32,000 bases of DNA from Candidatus Saccharimonadota bacterium (GCA_963698035.1 OY969114.1:744854-776853); one strand, 5' to 3'; positions 2,564 through 25,604 are shown, counted from the stretch's first letter. Made by a program: numbers and translations. Notes: a model not told the origin generated them from the sequence alone.

Positions 2564-2884
2564 TTACCTAAACATATTTGTATCGGCAGTCGTCTTTATC
2601 TCTGGTTGCTTGGGCATAGATGGATCAGCTAATTGTTTTTCTAAATTAACTATATTTTCAGATAAGATTTTGACTAGAGCTTTTGCTGTATTTTTGCTTA
2701 TTATAAATTCGCCGATAGCTTGATGCTTCATTCCATCCACAAAAATGAGTTCTATTTGACATTCTTTCTCGATTTTCCCTTTAGCGTCTTTTGCTGCCTT
2801 CATCCTAATTGCTAAAGCAACGTCATCAGCAAAAATTGGCTTGGTGTCAAAGAAGTTTATGCTTTGTTTTTGTTCATCTACCAT
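2564..2884 (-). CDS. hypothetical protein, DUF3467-like by eye
   Basis: 106 aa. The segment IELIFVDGMKHQAIGEFIISKNTAKALVKILSENIVNLEKQL resembles the DUF3467 family pattern. The gene is AT-rich. Function unknown. Confidence 0.6.
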   Translation of the reverse strand: MVDEQKQSINFFDTKPIFADDVALAIRMKAAKDAKGKIEKECQIELIFVDGMKHQAIGEFIISKNTAKALVKILSENIVNLEKQLADPSMPKQPEIKTTADTNMFR

Positions 2885-3014
2885 AAAATCATCGTAATAT
2901 ATTCATTGGTAAAGTAATAAAAGCGTTGATAAAATGGGCTTAATTATCAAAGCCACGCCCTAAGCCAAGCTCCAGCCTAGGAAAGGAGGGGGAGTGGAGA
3001 GGGCTCTCAGAAAG

Positions 3015-3022
3015 CATATAAG
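3015..3022 (+). promoter_or_regulatory. TATA box (CATATAAG) for the SemiSWEET gene
   Basis: Lies about 29 nt upstream of ATG 3045 (leaderless spacing). The same box and context recur at 10593-10601 upstream of the paralogous pseudogene. Confidence 0.5.
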
Positions 3023-3044
3023 GATTAAGGGTTCAATTTGATGT

Positions 3045-3299
3045 ATGTATTATGTTGAAATACTTGGTTTGATTGCAGGCTTCTTCACCACAATGGCATA
3101 TGCCCCACAAGCGATAAAGGCGCTCAAGACAAAGTCCACGAAGGATCTCTCAATCTTATGGCTTTCGATTGCAGGACTTGGAACCGCATTATGGATTTTC
3201 TATGGATTCTTCATAAGTTCCATTCCCATAATACTGTGGAACGTCGGGTCAGATGTGCTAATCGTGATACTCATAATGCTGAAGCTCAAATACGGCTAA
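3045..3299 (+). CDS. SemiSWEET / PQ-loop sugar transporter (single MtN3 unit)
   Basis: 84 aa with three hydrophobic helices and the PQ-loop motif MAYAPQAIKALKTKSTKDLS. Confidence 0.9.
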   Translation: MYYVEILGLIAGFFTTMAYAPQAIKALKTKSTKDLSILWLSIAGLGTALWIFYGFFISSIPIILWNVGSDVLIVILIMLKLKYG

Positions 3300-3466
3300 T
3301 AGCCTAAGCCCTAGCCCAAGCCCCAAAACTTCATATCCTATACCCTAAGGGTCTACGCGGAGAGTTTTTCCCCCAAAATGTCAGCTCATGACTTTTTTCA
3401 TAAGTTTTACGTGCTATCGGCTGAAGCATCCATTGGTTTTATAATAGTTAAATCAGCAGTTTTTCC

Positions 3467-4198
3467 ATGAAATTATCCTTTGACCCGATTATAAAAGATG
3501 TTTTCTTCTCGATGATGCTTGTTAGAGAGATACTGCTAGGACTTGCTAGTCCGAAATACGGAACTCTTGGACTGTATTATTTTGTAAAATTGAGGAAGGA
3601 TGTTTCATACATAAGAAATGAACTAAAGAAGAACTTTTCAACAACAGATATACTCAGGCGCTCGCACGGTGCAGGTGCGCAGTACAAGGAAATTCTGCTC
3701 TACCTTCTAGTAAGGAAGCTCAGGCCTAGGCTCGCAATTGAAACGGGAGTTGGCCAAGGGGTCTCAACATACTTCATCCTGAGGGCAATGAGGGACAACG
3801 GGTTTGGGAAGCTGATTAGCATAGACCTTCCAAATAGGAACAGTAGAGGTCGCATGAATGTGGATGGTATGATGGAAACCACATACATACCAAAGAACCT
3901 AACCCCGGGCTGGCTTGTTCCAAGAAAGTGGCGGAAGAACTGGAGACTAATTCTTGGGGACTCGAAGAACGTCTTGCCGAACCTAAACTGTGCCCCTAAT
4001 CTATTCTTTCACGACTCCGAGCACTCATATGAGACTATGAAGTTTGAGTATGGGTGGGCTCTCGACCACATGAAAAAGGGGATTATAGCATCCGATGACG
4101 TTGGATGGTCCAGGGCATGGAAGGAATTTCTCAGCAAATACAGAAGCAAAGTGAGGAAGCTCCGCTTTCCTATAATAGGAGTCTCGTTGCTGCGCTGA
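3467..4198 (+). CDS. class I SAM-dependent methyltransferase (Methyltransf_24-like)
   Basis: 243 aa with Rossmann motif I AIETGVGQGVST and a later FFHDSEHSYETM. ATG is 30 nt after the TTTTATAATA box (3437-3446). Confidence 0.75.
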   Translation: MKLSFDPIIKDVFFSMMLVREILLGLASPKYGTLGLYYFVKLRKDVSYIRNELKKNFSTTDILRRSHGAGAQYKEILLYLLVRKLRPRLAIETGVGQGVSTYFILRAMRDNGFGKLISIDLPNRNSRGRMNVDGMMETTYIPKNLTPGWLVPRKWRKNWRLILGDSKNVLPNLNCAPNLFFHDSEHSYETMKFEYGWALDHMKKGIIASDDVGWSRAWKEFLSKYRSKVRKLRFPIIGVSLLR

Positions 4199-4357: not shown

Positions 4358-5350
4358 ATGGTAACAATAGAAGGAAGCAAAACGTTTTACGCGCGTTCGC
4401 CACAGAGGATCAGCATAAGCGGCGGCGGGACCGATCTTTACGGATACGCAAGGTTCTACGGAGGAAATGTTGTGAACATTGCCGTGGACACTTATGCCAG
4501 AGTTATGGTCGAGAGAAATCCCAACCCAGGCGAAGTAAAGGCGATCTATGATAAGACCGAGAGAGTGTCAAAAGCCAAAATGCTTAGGCACGGGCCCACT
4601 GCCGAGGTGCTTCAGATGGCCGGAATAGAGTCAGGCGTTATAGTCAGATACATTGACAGCATTTCAACAGATTCCGGGATCGGCCTCAGAGGAGCGACCC
4701 ACGTTTCCGCGCTTCATGCAGCATACGCTTACGCTGGCAGAAGCATAGAGAAGGAGGAGCTTGCCCAAAAGGCAGTTGATGTCTCTAGAGTTGTAGATTT
4801 GGCGGGCGGGACCCAGGACGAGTACGCGGCCACATTTGGAGGGATAAATCACTGGAAGTCGGTGGGGGATGGGCGAGTGCTTAGAAATCCGATCAACCTG
4901 ACGGGCACAGCCCTCAAAGCCTTCATGGAATGCACAACAGTGTTCTATACTGGCACATTCGGCGATTATTCCATACTAACCGCAGAGATGGCAAGGCTGG
5001 AAAAGCACATAGACGACTTCCACAAGCTCTCGAGCCTTGCAAGACAAACGCCAGAGCCCCTTCTAAAGGGTGACATGGAAGTAGTTGGAGGGATATTGGC
5101 GGAGGACTGGGAGATAAAGCAGTCGCTGGATCCCAGTGTTGCTACGGCGAAGATGAAGCACGTTGACGGGCTTTTAAGGAAGGAGGGCGCGTGGGGCATG
5201 AAGGTCATGGGCCCCGGCAGCGGGGGTACAATAATAGTGATGGCGCCAGAGGAATTGCGTGAAAAGATAATATCTCTGATGGGTTCCGAAGGGCTGGCGC
5301 GCTACAACTTCAAGATTGACAACGAGGGCAGCAAGGTTTGGAGCCTGTAG
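4358..5350 (+). CDS. GHMP-family sugar(-phosphate) kinase, HddA/fucokinase-like
   Basis: 330 aa with RISISGGGTDL, GGTQDEYAATFGG and MGPGSGGTIIVMAP. The usual PxGSGLGSSS loop is divergent (DSGIGLRGATHVS). GGTGG lies 6 nt before the ATG. Confidence 0.85.
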   Translation: MVTIEGSKTFYARSPQRISISGGGTDLYGYARFYGGNVVNIAVDTYARVMVERNPNPGEVKAIYDKTERVSKAKMLRHGPTAEVLQMAGIESGVIVRYIDSISTDSGIGLRGATHVSALHAAYAYAGRSIEKEELAQKAVDVSRVVDLAGGTQDEYAATFGGINHWKSVGDGRVLRNPINLTGTALKAFMECTTVFYTGTFGDYSILTAEMARLEKHIDDFHKLSSLARQTPEPLLKGDMEVVGGILAEDWEIKQSLDPSVATAKMKHVDGLLRKEGAWGMKVMGPGSGGTIIVMAPEELREKIISLMGSEGLARYNFKIDNEGSKVWSL

Positions 5351-5379
5351 GGTTTGCCCGAGCTCCAAGCCTGATAAGC

Positions 5380-5387
5380 ATTATAAG
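5380..5387 (+). promoter_or_regulatory. TATA box (ATTATAAG) for the SET-domain gene
   Basis: 30 nt upstream of ATG 5410. Same box type as at 3015. Confidence 0.45.
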
Positions 5388-5409
5388 GATTGATTGCTTA
5401 CGTGTAATC

Positions 5410-5988
5410 ATGATCGCTGATTTGTTCGATATAAAAGAAACCGGCAGATACGGGAAGGGCATATTTGCAAGGAAGTTTATCCCCAAAGGCACCATTGTTC
5501 ACTTTTTATGCAGAAAATGCGGGACTTGGTCAAAAAAAGAACTGGCCAGATTGCCCAAAGATAAATTAGATTTTGTTATGGAACACGAGTATCCTATGAA
5601 ATATTGTGATGAAAGGCTTTTGTATATCAACCATTCCTGCAATCCGAATATCATGGAGTCTGGCAGGGGGTTTGATATAGTTGTAAAAGAAATTAAAGAG
5701 GGAGAAGAGGCAACGGAAGATTATAGGATATTCAAGGAAGAACTTCATTTTGCAGATGGTTGCAAGTGCGGAGAGCCGAATTGCATGAAAAGAACAACAT
5801 ATACACGCCCACCCCCGCAGAAACTACAAAGATTTTGGGATAAGAAAATAGAAGGCGCGTTGCGATTAATCAACTCAGTAAATCAGCCTTTAAAAATCCA
5901 ATTAGTGAAGGAACATCCGGATTTAAGCCATTTTTTCAATAAGAACGGAAAGCAACCAAAGCTCTTGAATACTGTTAGGGTGCCATGA
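5410..5988 (+). CDS. SET-domain protein (putative protein lysine methyltransferase)
   Basis: Contains GKGIFA, NHSCNPN and EGEEATEDY, plus a Cys-rich post-SET CKCGEPNC. I set the start at ATG 5410 (MIADLFDIKETGRYGKG). The track start at 5338 lies inside the upstream gene and spacer. Confidence 0.85.
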   Translation: MIADLFDIKETGRYGKGIFARKFIPKGTIVHFLCRKCGTWSKKELARLPKDKLDFVMEHEYPMKYCDERLLYINHSCNPNIMESGRGFDIVVKEIKEGEEATEDYRIFKEELHFADGCKCGEPNCMKRTTYTRPPPQKLQRFWDKKIEGALRLINSVNQPLKIQLVKEHPDLSHFFNKNGKQPKLLNTVRVP

Positions 5989-7425: not shown

Positions 7426-7860
7426 TTACTCCGAATAACCGAAAGAAATAGTATTATATTCATCGGTATCATAAACGCAAACGCCCTCTTCGTGCCACAA
7501 AACAAACTCTTTAATCCCAACATCTAGGGACATTTTACTGCAGATTGTGCAGTACGGTTTCCCGGCTCTTGCGGCATTATTATCCTTGTCAAGGCGCATG
7601 AAATATAGTCTAGAGCCCACGATTTTGTCAGGATTATTTCTTAATGCATCCATAATCGCTCTTTGCTCTGCGTGCATGCAGCAAGTTTTGTCCGTAACTT
7701 TTTTATTATATGATTCCTTTGAATATGTGCATCTCCTTTGCTCTTCTTTGTTTTGTGGTGGAGAATTGAACCCCTTTCCGATTATCGCGCCGTCTTTAAT
7801 AATTACAGCGCCGCATTTGTGGCGATTACAAGTAGAGTTTAAGGCGGCCTTGGCTGCCAT
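7426..7860 (-). CDS. CMP/dCMP deaminase family zinc-dependent deaminase
   Basis: 144 aa with CMHAEQRAI (H-A-E motif) and PYCTICSKM (PCxxC motif). Confidence 0.9.
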   Translation of the reverse strand: MAAKAALNSTCNRHKCGAVIIKDGAIIGKGFNSPPQNKEEQRRCTYSKESYNKKVTDKTCCMHAEQRAIMDALRNNPDKIVGSRLYFMRLDKDNNAARAGKPYCTICSKMSLDVGIKEFVLWHEEGVCVYDTDEYNTISFGYSE

Positions 7861-7970: not shown

Positions 7971-8678
7971 TCAAGTCTTTAACTGGCCCAGCAGACCGGA
8001 TACCCATTTGATTATTCCTTCGAAGAAAGTGTATGCGCCGGAGAGAAGCCCTGTCCCGGACGATGGACTTGAGGATACGGCGGGCGTCCCGGTGCTACTT
8101 ATGGTCCCGTTCTCGGCGTACGCATACACTGTGTAATTTGAGCTCTGCGAGCTGTACCCAGGCACAAGCATCTGTATCCCCGTCTGGTTCGTCATCGGCA
8201 CAAGGGTAAGCGGCTGTCCGAATGTTATATTATAGCCCTCTTTCTGGGCTGCGCTTGTAGCCTGTTGCGCTGTGATGAGCTTTGCTGTGCTGTACGGGGC
8301 CACGACCCCGCTGTACGCAAACAGTTTCATGGTTGAGCAGCCCTGCTCCGTGTTGTTGGACAGGACAAAGACCACCGCGGGACTTGCGGTAAGGCCGCTG
8401 GGCCCGGAGAACCTGTAATCAGCATATAAGAGATATGAGCTGCCCGGTGCAGAGTTCTTAGTGTAGTTTATCGCACTGGGAGAGATTATCTGCGCTGTGC
8501 TAAAGCCTGTGAAGTTGTAGTAGCTGTACACCCAACCTATGTTCCCGACAATCCCGACGAGCTTTGCGCCGGAGTAGTTTGCCACCTGCGGCGCGGTGCA
8601 CACAACGCTCTGTGCGCTCACCATCTGCATCGAGAAAACCGCAACGGCCACGAAAATGGCAATTACCTTCAGCGACAT
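7971..8678 (-). CDS. secreted or surface protein, probable glycoprotein, function unknown
   Basis: 235 aa with signal peptide MSLKVIAIFVAVAVFSMQMVSAQS, Ser/Thr/Tyr-rich composition and eight N-x-S/T sequons. A TATA box at 8702-8710 lies about 25-30 nt from the start. Confidence 0.8.
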   Translation of the reverse strand: MSLKVIAIFVAVAVFSMQMVSAQSVVCTAPQVANYSGAKLVGIVGNIGWVYSYYNFTGFSTAQIISPSAINYTKNSAPGSSYLLYADYRFSGPSGLTASPAVVFVLSNNTEQGCSTMKLFAYSGVVAPYSTAKLITAQQATSAAQKEGYNITFGQPLTLVPMTNQTGIQMLVPGYSSQSSNYTVYAYAENGTISSTGTPAVSSSPSSGTGLLSGAYTFFEGIIKWVSGLLGQLKT

Positions 8679-8852
8679 AACTCTGTCTTGACACCCAGAT
8701 TATAAATATCTACGCCCAACTAGAGCTCTGCTCATAAAATATCAAACCTGCTCACAAAGTGCCTTAAAAATTGGACTTTATGAGCAAAGCTCCCAACTAG
8801 CCTAGCCCAAGCCCAGGAGAGCTCTTCTGCTCTCTAAAAGCCTTAAAAAAGC

Positions 8853-8861
8853 TTAAATATC
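8853..8861 (+). promoter_or_regulatory. BRE/TATA promoter box TTAAATATC
   Basis: AAAAAAGC-TTAAATATC, 27 nt upstream of ATG 8880 (leaderless spacing). Confidence 0.6.
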
Positions 8862-8879
8862 TGGGCAATATAATGGTGT

Positions 8880-10073
8880 ATGTACCTTCAAATGGGTCAG
8901 TCTATGGATGCAGTAAAAAGCGCACAAGCCTGCCCCGTCTCCTTGCAAAGCCCGGAGACGGTCCGAGAGCTTTCGAGAGCCTATGATATACCGGCAGTGG
9001 ACTGCACTCTGATTGCACTGAATGCGTGCGGCCTCAGCACGGATATGTCATATCAAAGGGTCCGTTTCAAGCTCTCTTTGCAATCGAACCCCGAGGATGT
9101 TTTCTATTTGGGCATACCTGTGCTGAAAAAGGGCACGCCATTCGTATTGTCTGCCGAAAGAAAACAGCTTCTGTTTGGGGGAGAGGCGATTGGAACCATA
9201 TTAAATGCAGAAAATGACACCTGTGATTCATCGTATTTTAGGCGGAACGACACGGCCCTTACAATAAATACGAATTCGAGAAGCTCCTGCACGGGCTGTG
9301 CATTTTGTGCAACCCACAGGCAAGATGCCACGGACAAAGACCGCCTTTTGGCAGAGGAGCAATTGTCCGCTTACGTGACCGAAGTGTTCTCTGATCCAAA
9401 AAAGATGGGCGCAACCAGGCCGCATTTCCACTCGGCAGCGCCTCTGGTTAGAAAGGAACTTGACTTTTCCGCCCTTGTCCAGCTTGCAATAGTAACAGCG
9501 TGCTTTGATTCAGAAAGTGCCACAGCTGAACATATCAGAATGGTCCACGGCTTTTTCAGGAGGCATGGCTTTAACGGAGAACTTCGTTACATAGGGTGTG
9601 AGGTGATATCTGAACCTGTGCTTAAATCGCTCAAGGAAGAGATCGGTGACCTCGACATATGTCTATCGCTGGAGTGCTTCACCAGGAGAGAAAAACTGCT
9701 GCGAAAGACAAAGTCAAAGCTTACAATTGAGGATGCAGCGCATGTGCTTGGCGTGATGAAAGACCTGGGGATCAAGGGCAGTTTCACTTATATAGTCGGT
9801 CTTGATCCATTAGAAGAGATGGAGCAAGGCTTGAAGGGGCTTGCGCCGGTTGTCAGTGCCTTCCCGACGTTCCAGGTGTTCCAGCCCCACTGGGAGAGCC
9901 AGAGTGCTTTGAGAGCACCGGAAGCAGGTTCGCTGGAGTACTACCTTGAAGCTAGAAAGACCATAGAATCGCTGTATGGCGGCACGGGGTTGCGCCCGAG
10001 GCTTTGGCAAAACTATAGATCCCTCTGGTTCCTGGATTTCGCGGGCGAACATATGCACGACATAAGGGTATGA
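8880..10073 (+). CDS. Fe-S / radical-SAM-like enzyme with non-canonical CX2CX2C motif
   Basis: 397 aa. The core ALTINTNSRSSCTGCAFCATHRQD .. IVTACFDSE .. ICLSLECFTRREKLL .. FTYIVGLDP is laid out like a radical-SAM barrel, but the Cys spacing is CX2CX2C rather than CX3CX2C. The stop overlaps the next start (ATGA). Confidence 0.75.
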   Translation: MYLQMGQSMDAVKSAQACPVSLQSPETVRELSRAYDIPAVDCTLIALNACGLSTDMSYQRVRFKLSLQSNPEDVFYLGIPVLKKGTPFVLSAERKQLLFGGEAIGTILNAENDTCDSSYFRRNDTALTINTNSRSSCTGCAFCATHRQDATDKDRLLAEEQLSAYVTEVFSDPKKMGATRPHFHSAAPLVRKELDFSALVQLAIVTACFDSESATAEHIRMVHGFFRRHGFNGELRYIGCEVISEPVLKSLKEEIGDLDICLSLECFTRREKLLRKTKSKLTIEDAAHVLGVMKDLGIKGSFTYIVGLDPLEEMEQGLKGLAPVVSAFPTFQVFQPHWESQSALRAPEAGSLEYYLEARKTIESLYGGTGLRPRLWQNYRSLWFLDFAGEHMHDIRV

Positions 10074-10540
10074 GCATGGCGCGAAAAACAATTAGTTTCG
10101 ACGCTCCGGGGCTTGTGGCTGCGACTCTTAGGGGTGCTGCAGAGCGCGCCGGGAGGAGGTTTTCAGGCATAGGAATCATAGTGTATAAAGGCAGTAAACT
10201 CGATTACGAATATCACGCAGACCTAAGGCCTAACATTCCGTGCCCAAAGGGCATACGGCTTGGAAGCGCAGTATGCATCGATGAACTATTAAGGATAAGC
10301 GATCGCAGCAACCCCCTGCACGATGGATTTAACCTTTTCAATGGCAAGGGGCGGCTGACCCACGTTGCACAGTACGTCTTTTTCAGGCCGGTCAGAGGAG
10401 CATCTTCACATGACGGCTATGGCACGCGCTATATGACTGCCAAGTATGGTTCATTTGACGATTCCATCCTCATGGCCGGGATAGTGGAGCACGACCGTAA
10501 GTGTTTTATGTTCCAGAACGGCAGAATGATACCCTTGTGA
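10070..10540 (+). CDS. minimal DAC-fold (DisA_N/CdaA-like) protein with substituted catalytic motifs
   Basis: 156 aa. Alignment by eye to diadenylate cyclase domains gives three matches: GIGIIVY; NPLHDGFNLF (compare PLHDGA); and GYGTRYMTAKYGS..ILMAGIVEHDRKCFMFQNGRM (compare GTRHRAA..IVVSEETG.IS..NG). The canonical DGA and RHR motifs read DGF and RYM here. Confidence 0.75.
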   Translation: MSMARKTISFDAPGLVAATLRGAAERAGRRFSGIGIIVYKGSKLDYEYHADLRPNIPCPKGIRLGSAVCIDELLRISDRSNPLHDGFNLFNGKGRLTHVAQYVFFRPVRGASSHDGYGTRYMTAKYGSFDDSILMAGIVEHDRKCFMFQNGRMIPL

Positions 10541-10624
10541 AAATCGAAGAGCGAATGACTTAAGCCCCTTGCCGGGGAAAGAGCCCCGGAAAGGTATATA
10601 GGAATTGCGGGTTCAATCTAATGC

Positions 10625-10878
10625 ATGTATTATTTAGTAATACTCGGTCTGGTCGCTGGATTCTTGACTACAATGGCATATGTTCCGCAAGTGATAAAGG
10701 CGCTCAAGACAAAGTCCATGAAGGATCTCTCAATGCTGTGGCTTTTGACTGCGGAATTCGGGGCATATTATGGGCTTTCTATGGATTTTTCATAAGCTCT
10801 GTTCCTGTAATGCTGTGGAACGCAGTGTCGGACGTGCTTGCCGTAATACTTATAGTACTGAAGCTCAAGTACGGCTGA
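10625..10878 (+). pseudogene. frameshifted SemiSWEET paralogue
   Basis: From ATG 10625 it reads MYYLVILGLVAGFLTTMAYVPQVIKALKTKSMKDLSMLWLL.. and hits TAA at 10793. The conserved C-terminal half (ILWAFYGFFISSVPVMLWNAVSDVLAVILIVLKLKYG) is in the frame of track ORF 10621-10878. Between 10736 and 10784 this copy is 1 nt shorter than the intact copy at 3045-3299. Confidence 0.75.
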
Positions 10879-15613: not shown

Positions 15614-16171
15614 ATGGCGGATACCATAGAATATAATTACAAAGCAGTAAGCCACAAGGAGATGGCAGGATTCTGCAAAACGATGGCCGCAGAGATCAAG
15701 AGGCGCTTTGGCAAGCCTGCATGCATAGCGTTCATAATCCGGGGAGGGATTGTGCCTGGCAGATTGCTCAGCGATTGGCTTGGCTGCAAAGAGCTTATAG
15801 GAATCAGGGCAAGGAAATTCCAAGACATAGGAAAATTCGGCAAAGTCACCATAGACCAATCAAGCGTAGAGCAGATTAAGGCTCTGAATCTACCCGACGA
15901 TGCAACCATATTGCTTGTTGATGACATCAGCGGCACGGGCGAGACTCTCAAATGTGTCAAGGATAGCATCGCTCTAGCCTTCCCAAAGGCGAGGATAGTA
16001 ACGGCTGCTGCCCTTTCCATGCCAGGCACAAAATGCGCACCTGATGTTTTTGCGGACACGGTCAGTGACGACAGCTGGGTTGTATTTGAATACGAGGTTG
16101 CCGAGACTATGCGCAGCTTCGAGGTGCAAAACAACAAAAAAGGATTGGACTGGCTGAAAAAGGCATTCTAA
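15614..16171 (+). CDS. type I phosphoribosyltransferase, purine (hypoxanthine/guanine/xanthine) PRT-like
   Basis: 185 aa with the PRPP-binding loop ILLVDDISGTGETL. Confidence 0.88.
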   Translation: MADTIEYNYKAVSHKEMAGFCKTMAAEIKRRFGKPACIAFIIRGGIVPGRLLSDWLGCKELIGIRARKFQDIGKFGKVTIDQSSVEQIKALNLPDDATILLVDDISGTGETLKCVKDSIALAFPKARIVTAAALSMPGTKCAPDVFADTVSDDSWVVFEYEVAETMRSFEVQNNKKGLDWLKKAF

Positions 16172-16214: not shown

Positions 16215-16730
16215 GTGGGGGTTGAAAATCGCAAATACTCGGTCTATAGCTCAAACGTGATGGGCATCACAAAAGACGGCAGGCAGTACCTGAGGGATGT
16301 TCTCGTGCCCGCACTGAAAAAGCAGGGCAACATAGAAATCCTGGATCCGTGGGAATCTACATTGGCCGTGCGGGAGGAGGACATGCCAAGCAATCCGCCA
16401 TGCATGAGCAACGAGGAAAGAATGAAGATAGGCGTGGAGAACTTTGGCATGATCGACAGGGCCGATTTTATACTTGCTAACCTGGACGGGCGAGACGTTG
16501 ATTCTGGAGTCGGCGCAGAAATAGGATACGCCTATGCAAAAGGCAAGAAGATAATAGGATACTATAGAATTGATCCCGCTGCGTCGGGGTATAATGGACC
16601 CATACCGGAGAACATCCAGATTGAGGCCCCTATAAAACTATCCGGTGGGATAGTGGCAAGGAACCTGGACGACGCCATCAAAAGGCTTCAGGCAATGATA
16701 GAAACTGCCCCAAAGCTAGACAATGGCTAG
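16215..16730 (+). CDS. nucleoside 2-deoxyribosyltransferase / DNPH1-like family protein
   Basis: 171 aa. LANLDGRDVDSGVGAEIGYAYAKGKKIIGY matches the family motif. GTG 16215 lies about 25 nt after a TTTATATT box; ATG 16260 is an alternative start. Confidence 0.82.
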   Translation: MGVENRKYSVYSSNVMGITKDGRQYLRDVLVPALKKQGNIEILDPWESTLAVREEDMPSNPPCMSNEERMKIGVENFGMIDRADFILANLDGRDVDSGVGAEIGYAYAKGKKIIGYYRIDPAASGYNGPIPENIQIEAPIKLSGGIVARNLDDAIKRLQAMIETAPKLDNG

Positions 16731-22076: not shown

Positions 22077-23363
22077 TTATCCCCTCAACACGCCCGATAT
22101 CCAGTCCTCTTTACGCAAATTTGATCTCCTCACCAGACCCCGCGCCTTTGATTCCAAATGGTTTCCAAGCTGGCCGATCTCATCCAGTACAGTTTCCATA
22201 GGGGTTTCGTGACTCTTTTCGGACCTGATGTATTCTATCTCCACCTGGATTAGTTCATTTCTTTTTTGCGCCTGTGAAAGGTCCACCGATATGTTGTATA
22301 TGAGGCCAGAATTGCTTCTAACATAGCTTAGCCTTTTTATGCGCCTTGAGATGCCAATTGATGGCAGGGAGGTAACATCCAAGACATTATCTCTTACAAC
22401 GCTTCCTTCCACTTTTTCCTCTTTTCTAATCAGCACATTTCCACTAGTGAAAGTTCCTTTGTCTTTTACAATATAGCGCGGCTCCCCGACCCCCATATAC
22501 ATCACTCTTGCAACCGCGCCATCTGGCAAGACCTTATAGTCATTTATTGATTCCAGCGTAGGCGGTTCTCTGCACGCCTCTAAGATCGAATATCCCCCCA
22601 GCTCCCCCTTCGCTATTGACACGTAGAACCTCATAAATGCTTCATGGCTTACGGCATCGAATTTTAGCTCTATCTCTTTTCCCGGTAGTTCGCTGAAACA
22701 ACCTAATTGCCTGAACGTCTCGCGGGGTCTATCGGTAAGGTATAAGGCATTGTACGGCAGATAATGCTTCGAAGGCCCCAATTTGGCGTATTGCTGGGAT
22801 GCCATCTCTGAAAACACTTCATACCCCTCTGGACCTGCATACTTAACTTCTACTACCGCTGGGCTCAAAATGCCTATCCTCTTCGGCATCCCGTCAGCAT
22901 CCACACTGAACAAAGATATATCGGAATCAAGAGACACCCTAACATCTTTTTTAGTAAATATCTGCCTTAAGTATTGAACCGCTACGGTGGGTCTGAAATC
23001 GTATACCCGTATTGGAAACTGAGCATTTAACTTGTCTACCACTTCCTGTGCCGTTCCCTTAAACCTGCGCTTACTTTTATCTTCAAAAGAGGTGTAGCCG
23101 ATGTCTATGAATTTTTCACCTGTGCTTACAAAATTTTCATCTGGCTCTCCGATGTATCTTCGGGTCCTCGCCGCCAATCCCAAAGGCATCGCTCTATCAG
23201 CTGTATCAAAATATACGTTCTGCACCCACGTTCTTGCCTCCGCATTCTCCTCCAATCCCAATCTTCTTGAGCGGTGCAAGAATTCTTCGGCAGGCATATA
23301 AAGTCTTCTTTCCTTGCGCTCAGAAAAAAGCTTATCATTTGGATCTTTTGTTATCTCTATCAA
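22077..23363 (-). CDS. tandem triphosphate-tunnel protein (VTC-like domain + CYTH domain)
   Basis: The N-terminal half has VQNVYFDT, ARTRRY, VRVSLDSD and AVVEVKY (VTC/polyphosphate-polymerase-like). The C-terminal half has EIELKF ... QVEIEY (CYTH ExExK-type). The start is uncertain: I chose TTG 23363, which follows a TATAATATTAA box. ATG 23297 and the track start 23600 are alternatives, and 23600 would overlap the GNAT gene on the other strand. Confidence 0.75.
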   Translation of the reverse strand: MIEITKDPNDKLFSERKERRLYMPAEEFLHRSRRLGLEENAEARTWVQNVYFDTADRAMPLGLAARTRRYIGEPDENFVSTGEKFIDIGYTSFEDKSKRRFKGTAQEVVDKLNAQFPIRVYDFRPTVAVQYLRQIFTKKDVRVSLDSDISLFSVDADGMPKRIGILSPAVVEVKYAGPEGYEVFSEMASQQYAKLGPSKHYLPYNALYLTDRPRETFRQLGCFSELPGKEIELKFDAVSHEAFMRFYVSIAKGELGGYSILEACREPPTLESINDYKVLPDGAVARVMYMGVGEPRYIVKDKGTFTSGNVLIRKEEKVEGSVVRDNVLDVTSLPSIGISRRIKRLSYVRSNSGLIYNISVDLSQAQKRNELIQVEIEYIRSEKSHETPMETVLDEIGQLGNHLESKARGLVRRSNLRKEDWISGVLRG

Positions 23364-23450
23364 GAAATCATCTACCGCCGTAAAGTGATTAATATTATAA
23401 CTCCGTATTAGATATATATCTCTTTTGTAGGGTGGCCAAAGCCCAGAGAT

Positions 23451-23472
23451 CCCCGCACTGGCTGGTGCGGGG
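23451..23472 (+). other. conserved GC stem-loop, copy 1
   Basis: AGAGAT-CCCCGCAC-TGGCTG-GTGCGGGG-CC, with an 8-bp stem. It is homologous to 27135-27156, where two base pairs are changed in a compensatory way. Confidence 0.6.
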
Positions 23473-23532
23473 CCCTTATGAGAACCCAAAAGGAATTTAT
23501 AGGAACTTGAAATAAGACATATTGGTGGAATT

Positions 23533-24012
23533 ATGAAGATTAGACCGTTGCGATACTCTGATGCAAAAGAAGCTGCAAAACTCTTTGAGGAAACGTTCAA
23601 GCAGCTTACGCGTTACTATATTGCCAAGGAACTGAACATCGGACTAAAGAAATATTCCGCTAAAGGTCTGCAAGAGCACATGAAAGAGGGAAAGTATCTG
23701 TTTAGAGTAGCAGAGGATAGAGGTAAGATAGTTGGAGTTGTTGTGTGTGATTTTCCTGTTCAAGGATTGTGCTGGATAGAGTGGCTGGCAGTCAAGAAAA
23801 GCTATCGACGCAGGGGTGTTGGAAGTATGCTAGCCAGAAGCTTGGAGACACCAGTTCAAGGCAAATGGAACAAAATTATGACCAGAAGCAGAATGGGTAA
23901 CAATCCATCAATCAATCTATTCAGCAAGAAACTGGGTTTCACCAAAGTAGCAACTCTTAGAAGACATACACGCAAGAGGAATGCCTATACTTGGGAAAAG
24001 CAAATAAGCTAA
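23533..24012 (+). CDS. GNAT-family N-acetyltransferase
   Basis: 159 aa with motif A LAVKKSYRRRGVGSMLARSL. GGTGG lies 4 nt before the ATG. Confidence 0.9.
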   Translation: MKIRPLRYSDAKEAAKLFEETFKQLTRYYIAKELNIGLKKYSAKGLQEHMKEGKYLFRVAEDRGKIVGVVVCDFPVQGLCWIEWLAVKKSYRRRGVGSMLARSLETPVQGKWNKIMTRSRMGNNPSINLFSKKLGFTKVATLRRHTRKRNAYTWEKQIS

Positions 24013-24251: not shown

Positions 24252-25604
24252 ATGGGGAAATTAAAGGGGATGTCGGCTAGAGGCCTTAGAGCCTACAAAT
24301 TTGTCGTGCAGCGTGCGAAAGCATCAAAGAAGCTCAGCAGAAAAGACAAAAGACTGGTGCTCAAGGCGAATAAAATCATTGCCTCTGAAATCCACAGGTT
24401 TGTCATCGATGACCTAAAGGGCATACGTGCTGAGTCTGTCTTGGAGATAGGATGCGGTGATGGAGGTCTGTTAAGGACGCTCTCCAAGCAGAAGGGATTC
24501 GCGAACTCGCGGCTGTTCGGCATAGACAACTCGCCAGAGGAAATAGTAAAGGCAAGGCGTATGTCCAAGGCTGCAAAATCGGTGCATTATAGTGATGGCA
24601 GGAATGACCGGATCCCACATGCAGGCAAATTTGATTTGATATTCACAGTCCTTTCCTTCCATGAGTGGAAAAAAGGGAACGAGAGCATACCATACATACT
24701 CAGCAGGCTCAATAAGAACGGCTCGTTCCTGATTTATGATACGCCTCCAGTAAAGATAAAAAATCCGAAGCCGCGGAGGAAGGCGGGTATCAGATTTAAA
24801 CTGCAGAAGAACAGCGCATTGATTAAGGCTACCTTTGTTGCACCATCCGCTCCTTCGAGTCTCGTCTTCGATAATAGAACATTTGTTAGATATAGTCGCA
24901 AATGGAGCAAATCTAACAATCCTTATCTTGTAAAATTAAAGAAAAAGTACAAACTGGGAAGACTTGCATCAGTAGATAATGACCAGTACAAAACGCTGAA
25001 AAATTGTGTTAGGTGGGTCCACAGCAGATGGGAACACTCGGGTGTAAACGTCCCAAAGAAAAGCGATACGATTTCGATACTTGATGAGGCAAGAAAGGGC
25101 AAGAGATTCAGATGTGTCGAATACTCAATAGTATTGAACGCATGCCTAACGGCGCTTGGCATAAAGTCCAGGACGATTAATATCATGAAAAAGAGCATAG
25201 AGATGAAAAAGCCCTGCGCCGGGCACGTGATAGTTGAGGCGTATTTGAATGATTATGGGAAATGGGTGATGGCTGACGGGCAGTCCGGTTCCATACCGAT
25301 GTTAAAAGGCATTCCGCTTAATGCTGTGGAGTACCAGAAGGCCATAGTCAATAAAGAACCTCTGAAGATCTGGGGGCATGAAAATAAGGCCGGGAAGGCG
25401 TACACTAAGTGGATATTTCCTTACCTTTTCTACTTCCGAATCTGGCTGGATCCAAAGGTCCTAACCCTTGTCCCGTTAGGTGCGAAGAATCCCAGGAAGT
25501 TCGAGGGAGTTCCGTATCCTCCTAGAAATGTTGCCGTGTATACAAACTCTCTAAGAACGTTCTACGCCAAGCCTCCAAGCCCCCAAGCCTGGGCGGGAGG
25601 CTAG
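24252..25604 (+). CDS. fusion protein: class I SAM methyltransferase + transglutaminase-like cysteine protease fold
   Basis: 450 aa. The N-terminal half has VLEIGCGDGGLL, DLIFTVLSFHEW and LNKNGSFLIYD. The C-terminal half has RFRCVEYSIVLNACLTALGIKSR, GHVIVEAY and WVMADGQ, a Cys-His-Asp transglutaminase-core pattern. Confidence 0.8.
   Translation: MGKLKGMSARGLRAYKFVVQRAKASKKLSRKDKRLVLKANKIIASEIHRFVIDDLKGIRAESVLEIGCGDGGLLRTLSKQKGFANSRLFGIDNSPEEIVKARRMSKAAKSVHYSDGRNDRIPHAGKFDLIFTVLSFHEWKKGNESIPYILSRLNKNGSFLIYDTPPVKIKNPKPRRKAGIRFKLQKNSALIKATFVAPSAPSSLVFDNRTFVRYSRKWSKSNNPYLVKLKKKYKLGRLASVDNDQYKTLKNCVRWVHSRWEHSGVNVPKKSDTISILDEARKGKRFRCVEYSIVLNACLTALGIKSRTINIMKKSIEMKKPCAGHVIVEAYLNDYGKWVMADGQSGSIPMLKGIPLNAVEYQKAIVNKEPLKIWGHENKAGKAYTKWIFPYLFYFRIWLDPKVLTLVPLGAKNPRKFEGVPYPPRNVAVYTNSLRTFYAKPPSPQAWAGG

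Follow-up and report, generated by a model that had tools for sequence, protein, structure and literature searches.

A recurrent pairing of a radical-SAM-like gene and a minimal diadenylate cyclase-fold gene as a candidate small-molecule biosynthetic module

Two overlapping genes in the window

We analyzed a stretch of 32,000 nucleotides from Candidatus Saccharimonadota bacterium (GCA_963698035.1 OY969114.1:744854-776853), referred to as the window, and in it a pair of plus-strand open reading frames (ORFs), here called genes A and B. Gene A (8880-10073, +) encodes a 397-aa radical S-adenosylmethionine (SAM)-like protein and gene B (10070-10540, +) a 156-aa protein with the fold of a diadenylate cyclase (DAC); both were defined from a six-frame ORF list and the raw sequence. 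The two genes share an ATGA at 10070-10073 (+), in which the B start codon occupies 10070-10072 and the A stop codon TGA 10071-10073. A second in-frame Met lies at B codon 3 (10076); depending on the start used, the genes overlap by 4 nt or are 2 nt apart, and they abut in both cases. The overlap is consistent with translational coupling of the two genes. A preliminary description of this DNA had reported both ORFs, their overlap, a CX2CX2C cysteine triad in A and a series of peptides, all of which we recovered: TINTNSRSSCTGCAFCATH, IVTACFDSE, ICLSLECFTRREKLL and FTYIVGLDP in ORF A, and GIGIIVY, NPLHDGFNLF, GYGTRYMTAKYGS and ILMAGIVEHDRKCFMFQNGRM in ORF B.

Upstream of the pair, an AT-rich, TATA-like element, AGCTTAAATA, was read by eye at 8850-8859 (+), ~21-30 nt 5' of the A start codon; it hints at an archaeal promoter and at an A-B transcript with a short leader or none. 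The intergenic region 5' of A (8679-8879) also contains two copies of the 10-mer GCCTTAAAAA (8761-8770 and 8840-8849), two CTGCTCA motifs around 8728-8755 and a TTATAAATA box at 8700-8708. These repeats and boxes may be promoter or regulator sites for A and for the divergent gene at 7971-8678 (-).

Folds and active-site motifs of the two proteins

Protein B consists of a DAC domain alone, with no membrane or regulatory domain, as had been described. Its family profile scores are low (Pfam DAC, PF02457, E = 2.4e-3 and 17.9 bits, the gathering score being 27; TIGR00159 CdaA, 12.7 bits against a cut-off of 188.8). A search of PDB sequences gave one strong match, to PanS (37jy, "Panoptoo PanS synthase"; E = 7e-10 over residues 25-153), which a profile built from nine B homologues extended to full length at E = 8e-23. 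The AlphaFold2 (AF2) model of B has a predicted local distance difference test (pLDDT) score of 83.8, and its top 50 Foldseek matches in the PDB are all DAC domains (DacA, CdaA, DacM and DisA; probability 1.00, template-modeling (TM) score 0.59-0.66), bearing out the fold first proposed from alignment by eye. With the canonical DACs (CdaA/DacA, DisA and CdaM/DacM), B shares this fold, the Asp-Gly of the DGA motif and, in GTRHR, the Gly and the first Arg; identity is only 15-21%, and B has none of their transmembrane, DisA-linker or other appended domains. Its likeness to PanS is closer: both are ~150-aa proteins made of a DAC domain without a regulatory domain, they align over their full length, and they share the motifs F-x-G-x-G, HDGF, Q-Y, G-x-R and G-S.

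Two of these motifs correspond to the catalytic motifs of DACs. Residues H84-D85-G86-F87 (10319-10330, +), invariant in the B alignment, are the PanS-type counterpart of DGA, with Phe in place of Ala. Residues G118-T119-R120 (10421-10429, +) align with the G-T-R of GTRHR and the G-G-R of PanS. Of the three, G118 and R120 do not vary; the second and third positions of RHR are Tyr and Met, so that B reads DGF for DGA and RYM for RHR. The motif is GTRFR and GGRFR in two close relatives (L121 and L122, respectively) and GARHR in one member fused to a thiamine pyrophosphate (TPP) enzyme. Across the B family alignment, F31, H84-D85-G86-F87, G118, R120 and S128 are invariant, and the same residues are kept in both context classes, the A-linked and the PanS clades (H, D and G in 100%, F in 94-100%).

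PanS provides the biochemical reference. It is a ~150-aa minimal DAC (mDAC) that constitutively makes 3'3'-cUA or c-di-AMP and restrains PanE, a Cap15-like S2TM-beta effector (bioRxiv 10.64898/2026.08.10.743927). Its catalytic motifs are DGF and GGR; mutation abolishes synthesis, DGF being required in VcPanS, and the product, which co-purifies tightly bound, is contacted in RePanS by D71, G72, G107 and R108 (bioRxiv 10.64898/2026.08.10.743927). In the mDAC clade, the D, G, G and R are conserved in 100% of members, F22, F70 and S113 in at least 99% and HDGFH in ~94%, the conserved residues in EcPanS numbering being F22, D68, G69, F70, G103, R105 and S113 (bioRxiv 10.64898/2026.08.10.743972). 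Because active PanS enzymes carry DGF and G-x-R, the DGF and RYM of B are best read as a PanS-type active-site signature and not as motif loss. The earlier suggestion that B lacks the essential motifs and may hence be a non-catalytic partner is not supported, DGF and G-x-R being invariant in the B clade; B is probably catalytic.

In protein A, an N-terminal alpha/beta domain (~25-121) precedes a (beta/alpha)6 barrel (~126-366), and the C-terminus carries a W-x-N-Y-R-x-L-W tail (376-383) that is conserved. The AF2 model of A (pLDDT 89.4) contains six beta-alpha units and places the cysteine loop (130-158) between beta1 (126-129) and alpha1 (159-171), where the cluster cysteines of radical-SAM enzymes are canonically found. 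Seen in the sequence, the cluster loop C137-T-G-C140-A-F-C143 spans 9288-9308 (+), with the triad codons at 9288-9290, 9297-9299 and 9306-9308. It follows the pattern CxGCxFC, in which C137, G139, C140 and C143 are invariant in the family alignment. Essentially all of 218 A homologues carry CX2CX2C and none the canonical CX3CX2C; in 200 of 211, the residue just before the third Cys is aromatic (F, W or Y). A fourth cysteine, C208, lies in a T-G-C-F motif after beta2, at the place of the GGE motif of many radical-SAM enzymes, and is present in 203 of the 218; these four are the only invariant or near-invariant cysteines of the family.

A thus combines features that tie it to the radical-SAM superfamily, namely the (beta/alpha)6 partial barrel, the three-Cys post-beta1 loop and the aromatic before the last Cys, with others that set it apart: CX2CX2C in place of CX3CX2C, the extra ~100-aa N-terminal domain and the C-terminal tail. 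Pfam Radical_SAM (PF04055) matches residues 139-311 at 19.4 bits (gathering score 29.5, E = 1.3e-3). The best Foldseek matches of the model are lipoyl synthases (LipA; 5exk and 4u0p) at a TM-target of 0.5-0.57 and 14-16% identity, followed by SkfB, BlsE, viperin, MqnE, SuiB and CysS. The N-terminal auxiliary-cluster Cys motif of LipA is absent from A, which has no LipA NCBIfam match; no curated NCBIfam model covers A, and a profile of A gave no significant match among PDB sequences. Homologues number at least 129 in the protein database, and a scan of one genome per species found A in 233 genomes; the best named relatives belong to Aenigmatarchaeota, a kinship that suggests a DPANN-type archaeon as the source of the window.

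The CX2CX2C spacing, for which literature searches gave no radical-SAM precedent, is that of ferredoxin-like motifs, and could instead point to a non-radical Fe-S TIM barrel that holds its cluster on C137, C140, C143 and C208 for redox or lyase/dehydratase chemistry, with B supplying or binding a nucleotide substrate. We consider this reading, which is orthogonal to the alternatives discussed below, distinctly unlikely. The near-invariance of the fourth Cys, the sub-threshold Radical_SAM score of the window protein and some aldolase-type barrels among the Foldseek matches agree with it; those barrels, however, match at poorer TM, and radical-SAM enzymes provide both the top structural matches with coherent TM and the largest number of them. 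Radical_SAM is also the sole Pfam family that recurs among the homologues (12 of 34 at E <= 0.01, best E = 2.9e-7), many of which are annotated "radical SAM protein" by NCBI, and the triad occupies the canonical loop with the canonical aromatic before its last Cys. The radical-SAM likeness noted in the preliminary description is therefore upheld by profile, homologue and structural evidence, and A is best regarded as a predicted, divergent radical-SAM-like Fe-S enzyme that has the fold and loop position without the canonical motif. As a family of at least 233 species outside curated models, with an invariant CX2CX2C, it offers a test case of how far the radical-SAM motif can vary.

Conservation of the pairing and the cassette around A

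A survey of homologue neighborhoods, proposed in the preliminary description, found the pairing conserved: A and B are adjacent in ~28 distinct loci from DPANN archaea, candidate phyla radiation (CPR) bacteria, gammaproteobacterial metagenome-assembled genomes (MAGs), and gut or fermentation Firmicutes-like contigs. Either gene may come first; the two overlap by 8 nt at the tightest junction and are 19 nt apart at the widest. Three metagenome contigs found via B have B immediately upstream of an A homologue of 36-37% identity, the reverse of the window order, whereas in an archaeal MAG found via A (L008) it is A that comes first. Among relatives on usable contigs, the nearest two, L121 and L122, carry A, B and a UbiE-like methyltransferase. 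In L121 this trio is followed by a 471-aa ORF (2639-4054, +) with a C-terminal HAD domain and an unannotated N-terminal half, in which a phosphoribosyltransferase-like motif, IIFIDDLIKTGAT, was seen by eye.

The pairing was assessed from both sides. A B-centered metagenome scan gave 28 loci, of which 17 have A adjacent, seven have a Cap15_CD_rec (PanE-type) neighbor and four are uninformative; none of the 28 has both A and a Cap15-type neighbor. In the A-centered scan, neighborhoods were fetched for 80 loci, and a B-like ORF or domain adjoins A in eight, all of which group closest to the window protein in the A tree. Neighbor-joining (NJ) trees, calculated without support values, place all A-linked B proteins in one clade that is sister to PanS and lies apart from RePanS and from the Cap15-adjacent and Cap15-fused proteins. 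The subclades of the A and B trees mirror each other, consistent with long co-inheritance.

Because ~28 loci from unrelated lineages keep A and B together, and because B is also fused to cassette enzymes, the adjacency lies far beyond chance. An accidental juxtaposition, or a pair of spurious ORFs, might be entertained on the grounds that both proteins fall under Pfam gathering thresholds and neither is named in public sources, but it is scarcely credible against confident AF2 models of both, hundreds of homologues with invariant motifs, and the recurrent adjacency and domain fusions; conservation effectively refutes it. Nor did profile searches and structure prediction place B outside the DAC fold or A in an unrelated family. 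The preliminary description had suggested that a DAC plus radical-SAM operon was undescribed, and literature searches for such an operon, or for a phosphoketolase plus radical-SAM cluster, gave nothing relevant; a radical-SAM, TPP or methyltransferase partner is likewise unmentioned in the two mDAC preprints (bioRxiv 10.64898/2026.08.10.743927 and 10.64898/2026.08.10.743972). The folds are known; the A-B partnership is new and conserved, and the cassette to which it belongs is unstudied.

That wider cassette, comprising a TPP enzyme, a methyltransferase and a haloacid dehalogenase (HAD) hydrolase, had been passed over in the preliminary description, as had the kinship of B to phage-defense enzymes. 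We clustered and annotated the ORFs around A in 87 loci and found A to be the core of an uncharacterized cassette in at least 233 species. A phosphoketolase-like (XFP-like) TPP enzyme is present in 56 loci of the clustering set; its best score is 376 bits against an NCBIfam phosphoketolase cut-off of 777, and its length is 650-720 aa as opposed to ~790-825 aa for true phosphoketolases. In its stead there may be a split TPP enzyme, akin to sulfopyruvate or phosphonopyruvate decarboxylase. HAD hydrolases occur in 58 loci, class-I SAM methyltransferases in 55 and an enolase-superfamily protein in 51, mainly from actinobacteria; HD or PHP phosphoesterases are found in some cassettes. A together with the methyltransferase forms the common core, to which B and the TPP enzyme are independent add-ons. 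The product of B is therefore not the obligatory substrate of A everywhere, unless housekeeping cyclases supply it.

B occurs either free-standing or in two types of fusion, the domains of which were verified by Pfam. In the first, it forms the C-terminus of a TPP beta-subunit (TPP_enzyme_C + DAC; P0145, P0151, L010, L017, L019 and L093); in the second, it is carried at the N-terminus of a class-I SAM methyltransferase (P0143, L014 and L018).

The flanks of the A cassettes look like secondary-metabolite or nucleotide-metabolism genes. In gut metagenomes they include an EryCIII-like GT1 glycosyltransferase, a DegT aminotransferase, GrpB, PHP and a carrier protein. Around the cassette of a Nocardia farcinica plasmid are genes for a nucleoside hydrolase, pyrF and two more radical-SAM genes. 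In 30 Clostridium perfringens plasmids, the cassette lies beside ABC transporters, BtrH-N, adenylate-forming enzymes, an acyl carrier protein and an adenylation domain. One of these (L119; NZ_CP075936.1, 28.4-47.5 kb) and 29 similar ~70-kb mobilizable plasmids carry A, a phosphoketolase-family protein, PHP and a methyltransferase; no B was found in these nonribosomal peptide synthetase (NRPS)-like clusters.

Eight actinobacterial A cassettes without B, including that of Nocardia, encode a GGDEF-like protein of ~208 aa with GGDEV intact (L120 11846-12472; homologues in L025, L026, L031, L036, L041, L050 and L080). Its Pfam match reaches 21.8 bits, short of the threshold of 23.8, and the NCBI product name agrees with the assignment. 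This protein may be a fold-swapped functional analogue of B, which hints that a step condensing nucleoside triphosphates (NTPs) is an optional yet recurrent part of the pathway. A broader B-superfamily hidden Markov model (HMM) built from ~120 representatives detected no B in actinobacterial or C. perfringens loci. We also considered as a cryptic B the protein "hyp155" (~150 aa; 55 loci, near-universal in the actinobacterial cassette; for example L005 10099-10542), and rejected it, since hhalign gave a probability of 0.06 and the protein is YdeI/OmdA-like.

Candidate roles and surroundings of the module

Minimal DACs were recognized in August 2026 as constitutive decoy-signal synthases in phage defense (bioRxiv 10.64898/2026.08.10.743927 and 10.64898/2026.08.10.743972). 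The locus studied here reveals a sister clade of mDACs that has other conserved partners: a radical-SAM-like enzyme and, by fusion, a TPP enzyme and a methyltransferase. By sequence and architecture B is a PanS-type mDAC; by partner, defense context and clade placement it is not a Panoptoo component. Its partner is A, with or without a methyltransferase or TPP enzyme, in place of the Cap15-like 2TM-beta effector of PanS; unlike PanS it does not lie in a defense island, and it is fused to metabolic enzymes. The hosts of A-linked B are archaeal, CPR and Firmicutes-like, those of PanS mainly Pseudomonadota, and residues specific to the A-linked clade relative to PanS include Y39, P54 and T97.

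Searches aimed at defense agree with this separation. PADLOC gave no matches for A, B or ten flanking genes in the window and its relatives, and no relatives of A or B were found among IMG/VR viral contigs. A home-made S2TM-beta HMM found no match within 7 kb of the window pair or in any A-linked locus, and the same HMM does recover Cap15_CD_rec proteins beside other B relatives. In archaeal relatives, the neighbors of the A-B loci are housekeeping genes.

In a Panoptoo/PanDA-like guard, a cyclic dinucleotide made constitutively by B would restrain A, which would itself be toxic (a radical-SAM effector such as a nucleotide modifier of the viperin kind) and would be released once phage sponges take the signal away. 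We regard this as very unlikely. The nearest characterized relatives of B do work in this way with PanE, a minimal DAC without a regulatory domain fits constitutive synthesis, viperin-family enzymes are among the structural neighbors of A, and module swapping has already been seen between Panoptes and Panoptoo. Yet A mostly occurs without B, in operons with TPP, methyltransferase, HAD and enolase-family enzymes and beside glycosyltransferase, NRPS-like and nucleoside genes, and the fusion partners of B in the A-linked clade are TPP_C or methyltransferase, never a receptor. The separation of that clade from Cap15-linked PanS, the absence of PADLOC matches and viral copies, and the housekeeping neighbors in archaeal loci all point the same way.

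Six proteins outside the A-linked clade (P0165, P0174, P0178, P0185, P0199 and P0201) combine in a single chain an N-terminal 2TM + Cap15_CD_rec (PanE-like) part and a C-terminal PanS-like DAC. They are in effect one-protein Panoptoo systems, which go unmentioned in the accessible portions of the two mDAC preprints.

A second alternative, which we judge unlikely, assigns B a regulatory or nucleotide-sensing role, or makes it a local source of a c-di-AMP-type signal, controlling A and the fused TPP enzyme or methyltransferase. Its appeal is that B is dispensable in most cassettes, that fusion to two different enzymes (TPP_C and methyltransferase) is typical of regulatory domains, that the products of canonical DACs are signals and that PanS co-purifies with tightly bound product. 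In the A-linked clade, however, invariance extends past the binding residues to those of catalysis, D85, G86, G118 and R120; A and its neighbors have no recognizable c-di-AMP receptor domain; and the fact that a small genome has kept the two genes on their own speaks for a direct partnership between enzymes.

We favor the reading that A and B form a co-inherited two-enzyme module of a widespread, uncharacterized small-molecule biosynthetic cassette and not a Panoptoo-type defense system, a proposal that we regard as evenly poised between right and wrong. The chemistry of the cassette is probably nucleotide- or sugar-phosphate-linked. From the folds, motif conservation, adjacency, fusions and separation from PanS-PanE loci observed above, we infer catalysis by A and B, an order of steps and the nature of a product, as follows. 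A B dimer with an intact PanS-like core would consume NTPs by DAC-type chemistry, the ribose 3'-OH attacking the alpha-phosphate, and would yield a cyclic or linear dinucleotide or place a nucleotidyl group on a pathway intermediate. A, with a [4Fe-4S] cluster held by the CxGCxFC loop, would then carry out SAM-derived radical chemistry on the same nucleotide-linked substrate. In relatives, the UbiE-like methyltransferase, the TPP-dependent enzyme (C2 chemistry) and the HAD phosphatase could tailor the product further.

Several points weigh against this proposal. Most A cassettes have no B (eight of the 80 do), so that B is dispensable for the core chemistry of A and may be a regulatory, tailoring or self-protection step instead. 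In the window, the "pathway" amounts to two enzymes only: a search of its 32 kb, including tblastn, recovered no further member of the cassette, be it a TPP enzyme, a HAD or the archaeal UbiE-like methyltransferase. The near-invariant C208 could leave the cluster of A fully Cys-ligated and unable to bind SAM. Both A and B score below their Pfam gathering thresholds, the lack of support values in the NJ trees makes the clade placement of B provisional, and the GGDEF link consists of a sub-threshold match in eight loci only.

Two known arrangements offer comparison. Modules are interchangeable in Panoptes and Panoptoo (bioRxiv 10.64898/2026.08.10.743927). The swap between them (mCpol/GGDEF-like versus DAC) is echoed in the A cassette, where B occurs in some lineages and the GGDEF-like protein in eight actinobacterial loci; here, however, the swap takes place in a biosynthetic-looking operon and not beside a receptor or effector, and the GGDEF assignment is weak. 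The fosfomycin route uses the cytidylyltransferase Fom1, the TPP-dependent phosphonopyruvate decarboxylase Fom2 and the radical-SAM methylase Fom3. By analogy only, it resembles the A cassette in bringing nucleotidyl-transferring, Ppd-family TPP and radical-SAM enzymes and a later hydrolase to bear on one small molecule; it differs in that the cassettes showed no PEP (phosphoenolpyruvate) mutase, that A is no cobalamin-dependent radical-SAM enzyme and that the nucleotidyltransferase fold is that of a DAC.

If B is active, DAC chemistry would build or tag a small molecule beyond signaling, widening the roles of cyclic-dinucleotide synthases. A further-reaching possibility, which we raise tentatively and hold to be doubtful, is that a PanS-like mDAC clade was recruited from signaling and defense into biosynthesis, with the product of B (a cyclic or linear dinucleotide, or a nucleotidylated intermediate) rewritten by A, and in relatives modified further by a methyltransferase or TPP enzyme, into a new class of modified nucleotide or cyclic-dinucleotide metabolites. 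The producers would be DPANN archaea, CPR bacteria and gut Firmicutes, together with actinomycetes using the GGDEF-like substitute. Were this true, B would be the first DAC-fold enzyme in biosynthesis and A would define a new radical-SAM subfamily by its non-canonical cluster motif, with possible new nucleotide metabolites in DPANN, CPR, gut bacteria and C. perfringens plasmids. The two-gene version in the window is a minimal system, open to direct expression and metabolomics.

The remaining genes of the window include an ammonium transporter, a methyltransferase, a GHMP kinase, a SET-domain protein, a dCMP deaminase, a signal-peptide protein rich in N-x-S/T, a frameshifted PQ-loop gene and a PMT_2 glycosyltransferase. 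No riboswitch or other RNA family emerged when the entire window was scanned against Rfam, and no tRNA was found. The accessory-looking context ascribed to the pair in the preliminary description is not supported, the flanking genes being housekeeping or surface genes without PADLOC matches; the decayed SemiSWEET copy mentioned in that description is indeed split over two frames. This PQ-loop (SemiSWEET-like) gene lies at 10621-10878 (+), with the PF04193 match in a 56-aa ORF (10625-10795) and the C-terminal transmembrane part running on in the frame of ORF 10621-10878. An independent Logan assembly (L001) shows the same split PQ-loop calls at this locus, and the gene adjoins the A-B module in none of its relatives.

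Between 8001 and 13000, the G+C content is 0.48-0.52, compared with 0.39-0.47 in most of the window; this interval spans the secreted protein, A, B and the PMT_2 glycosyltransferase, and its composition gives a weak hint of a separate origin. Salvage-type genes are scattered over the window, which is typical of a reduced, salvage-dependent genome: a dCMP/cytidine deaminase (7426-7860, -), a phosphoribosyltransferase (15614-16171, +) and a nucleoside 2-deoxyribosyltransferase (16215-16730, +), along with a VTC-domain protein (22077-23600, -). A class-I SAM methyltransferase fused to a transglutaminase-like core domain is encoded at 24252-25604 (+; 450 aa), and the SET-domain protein, of 216 aa and with a TTG start, at 5338-5988 (+).

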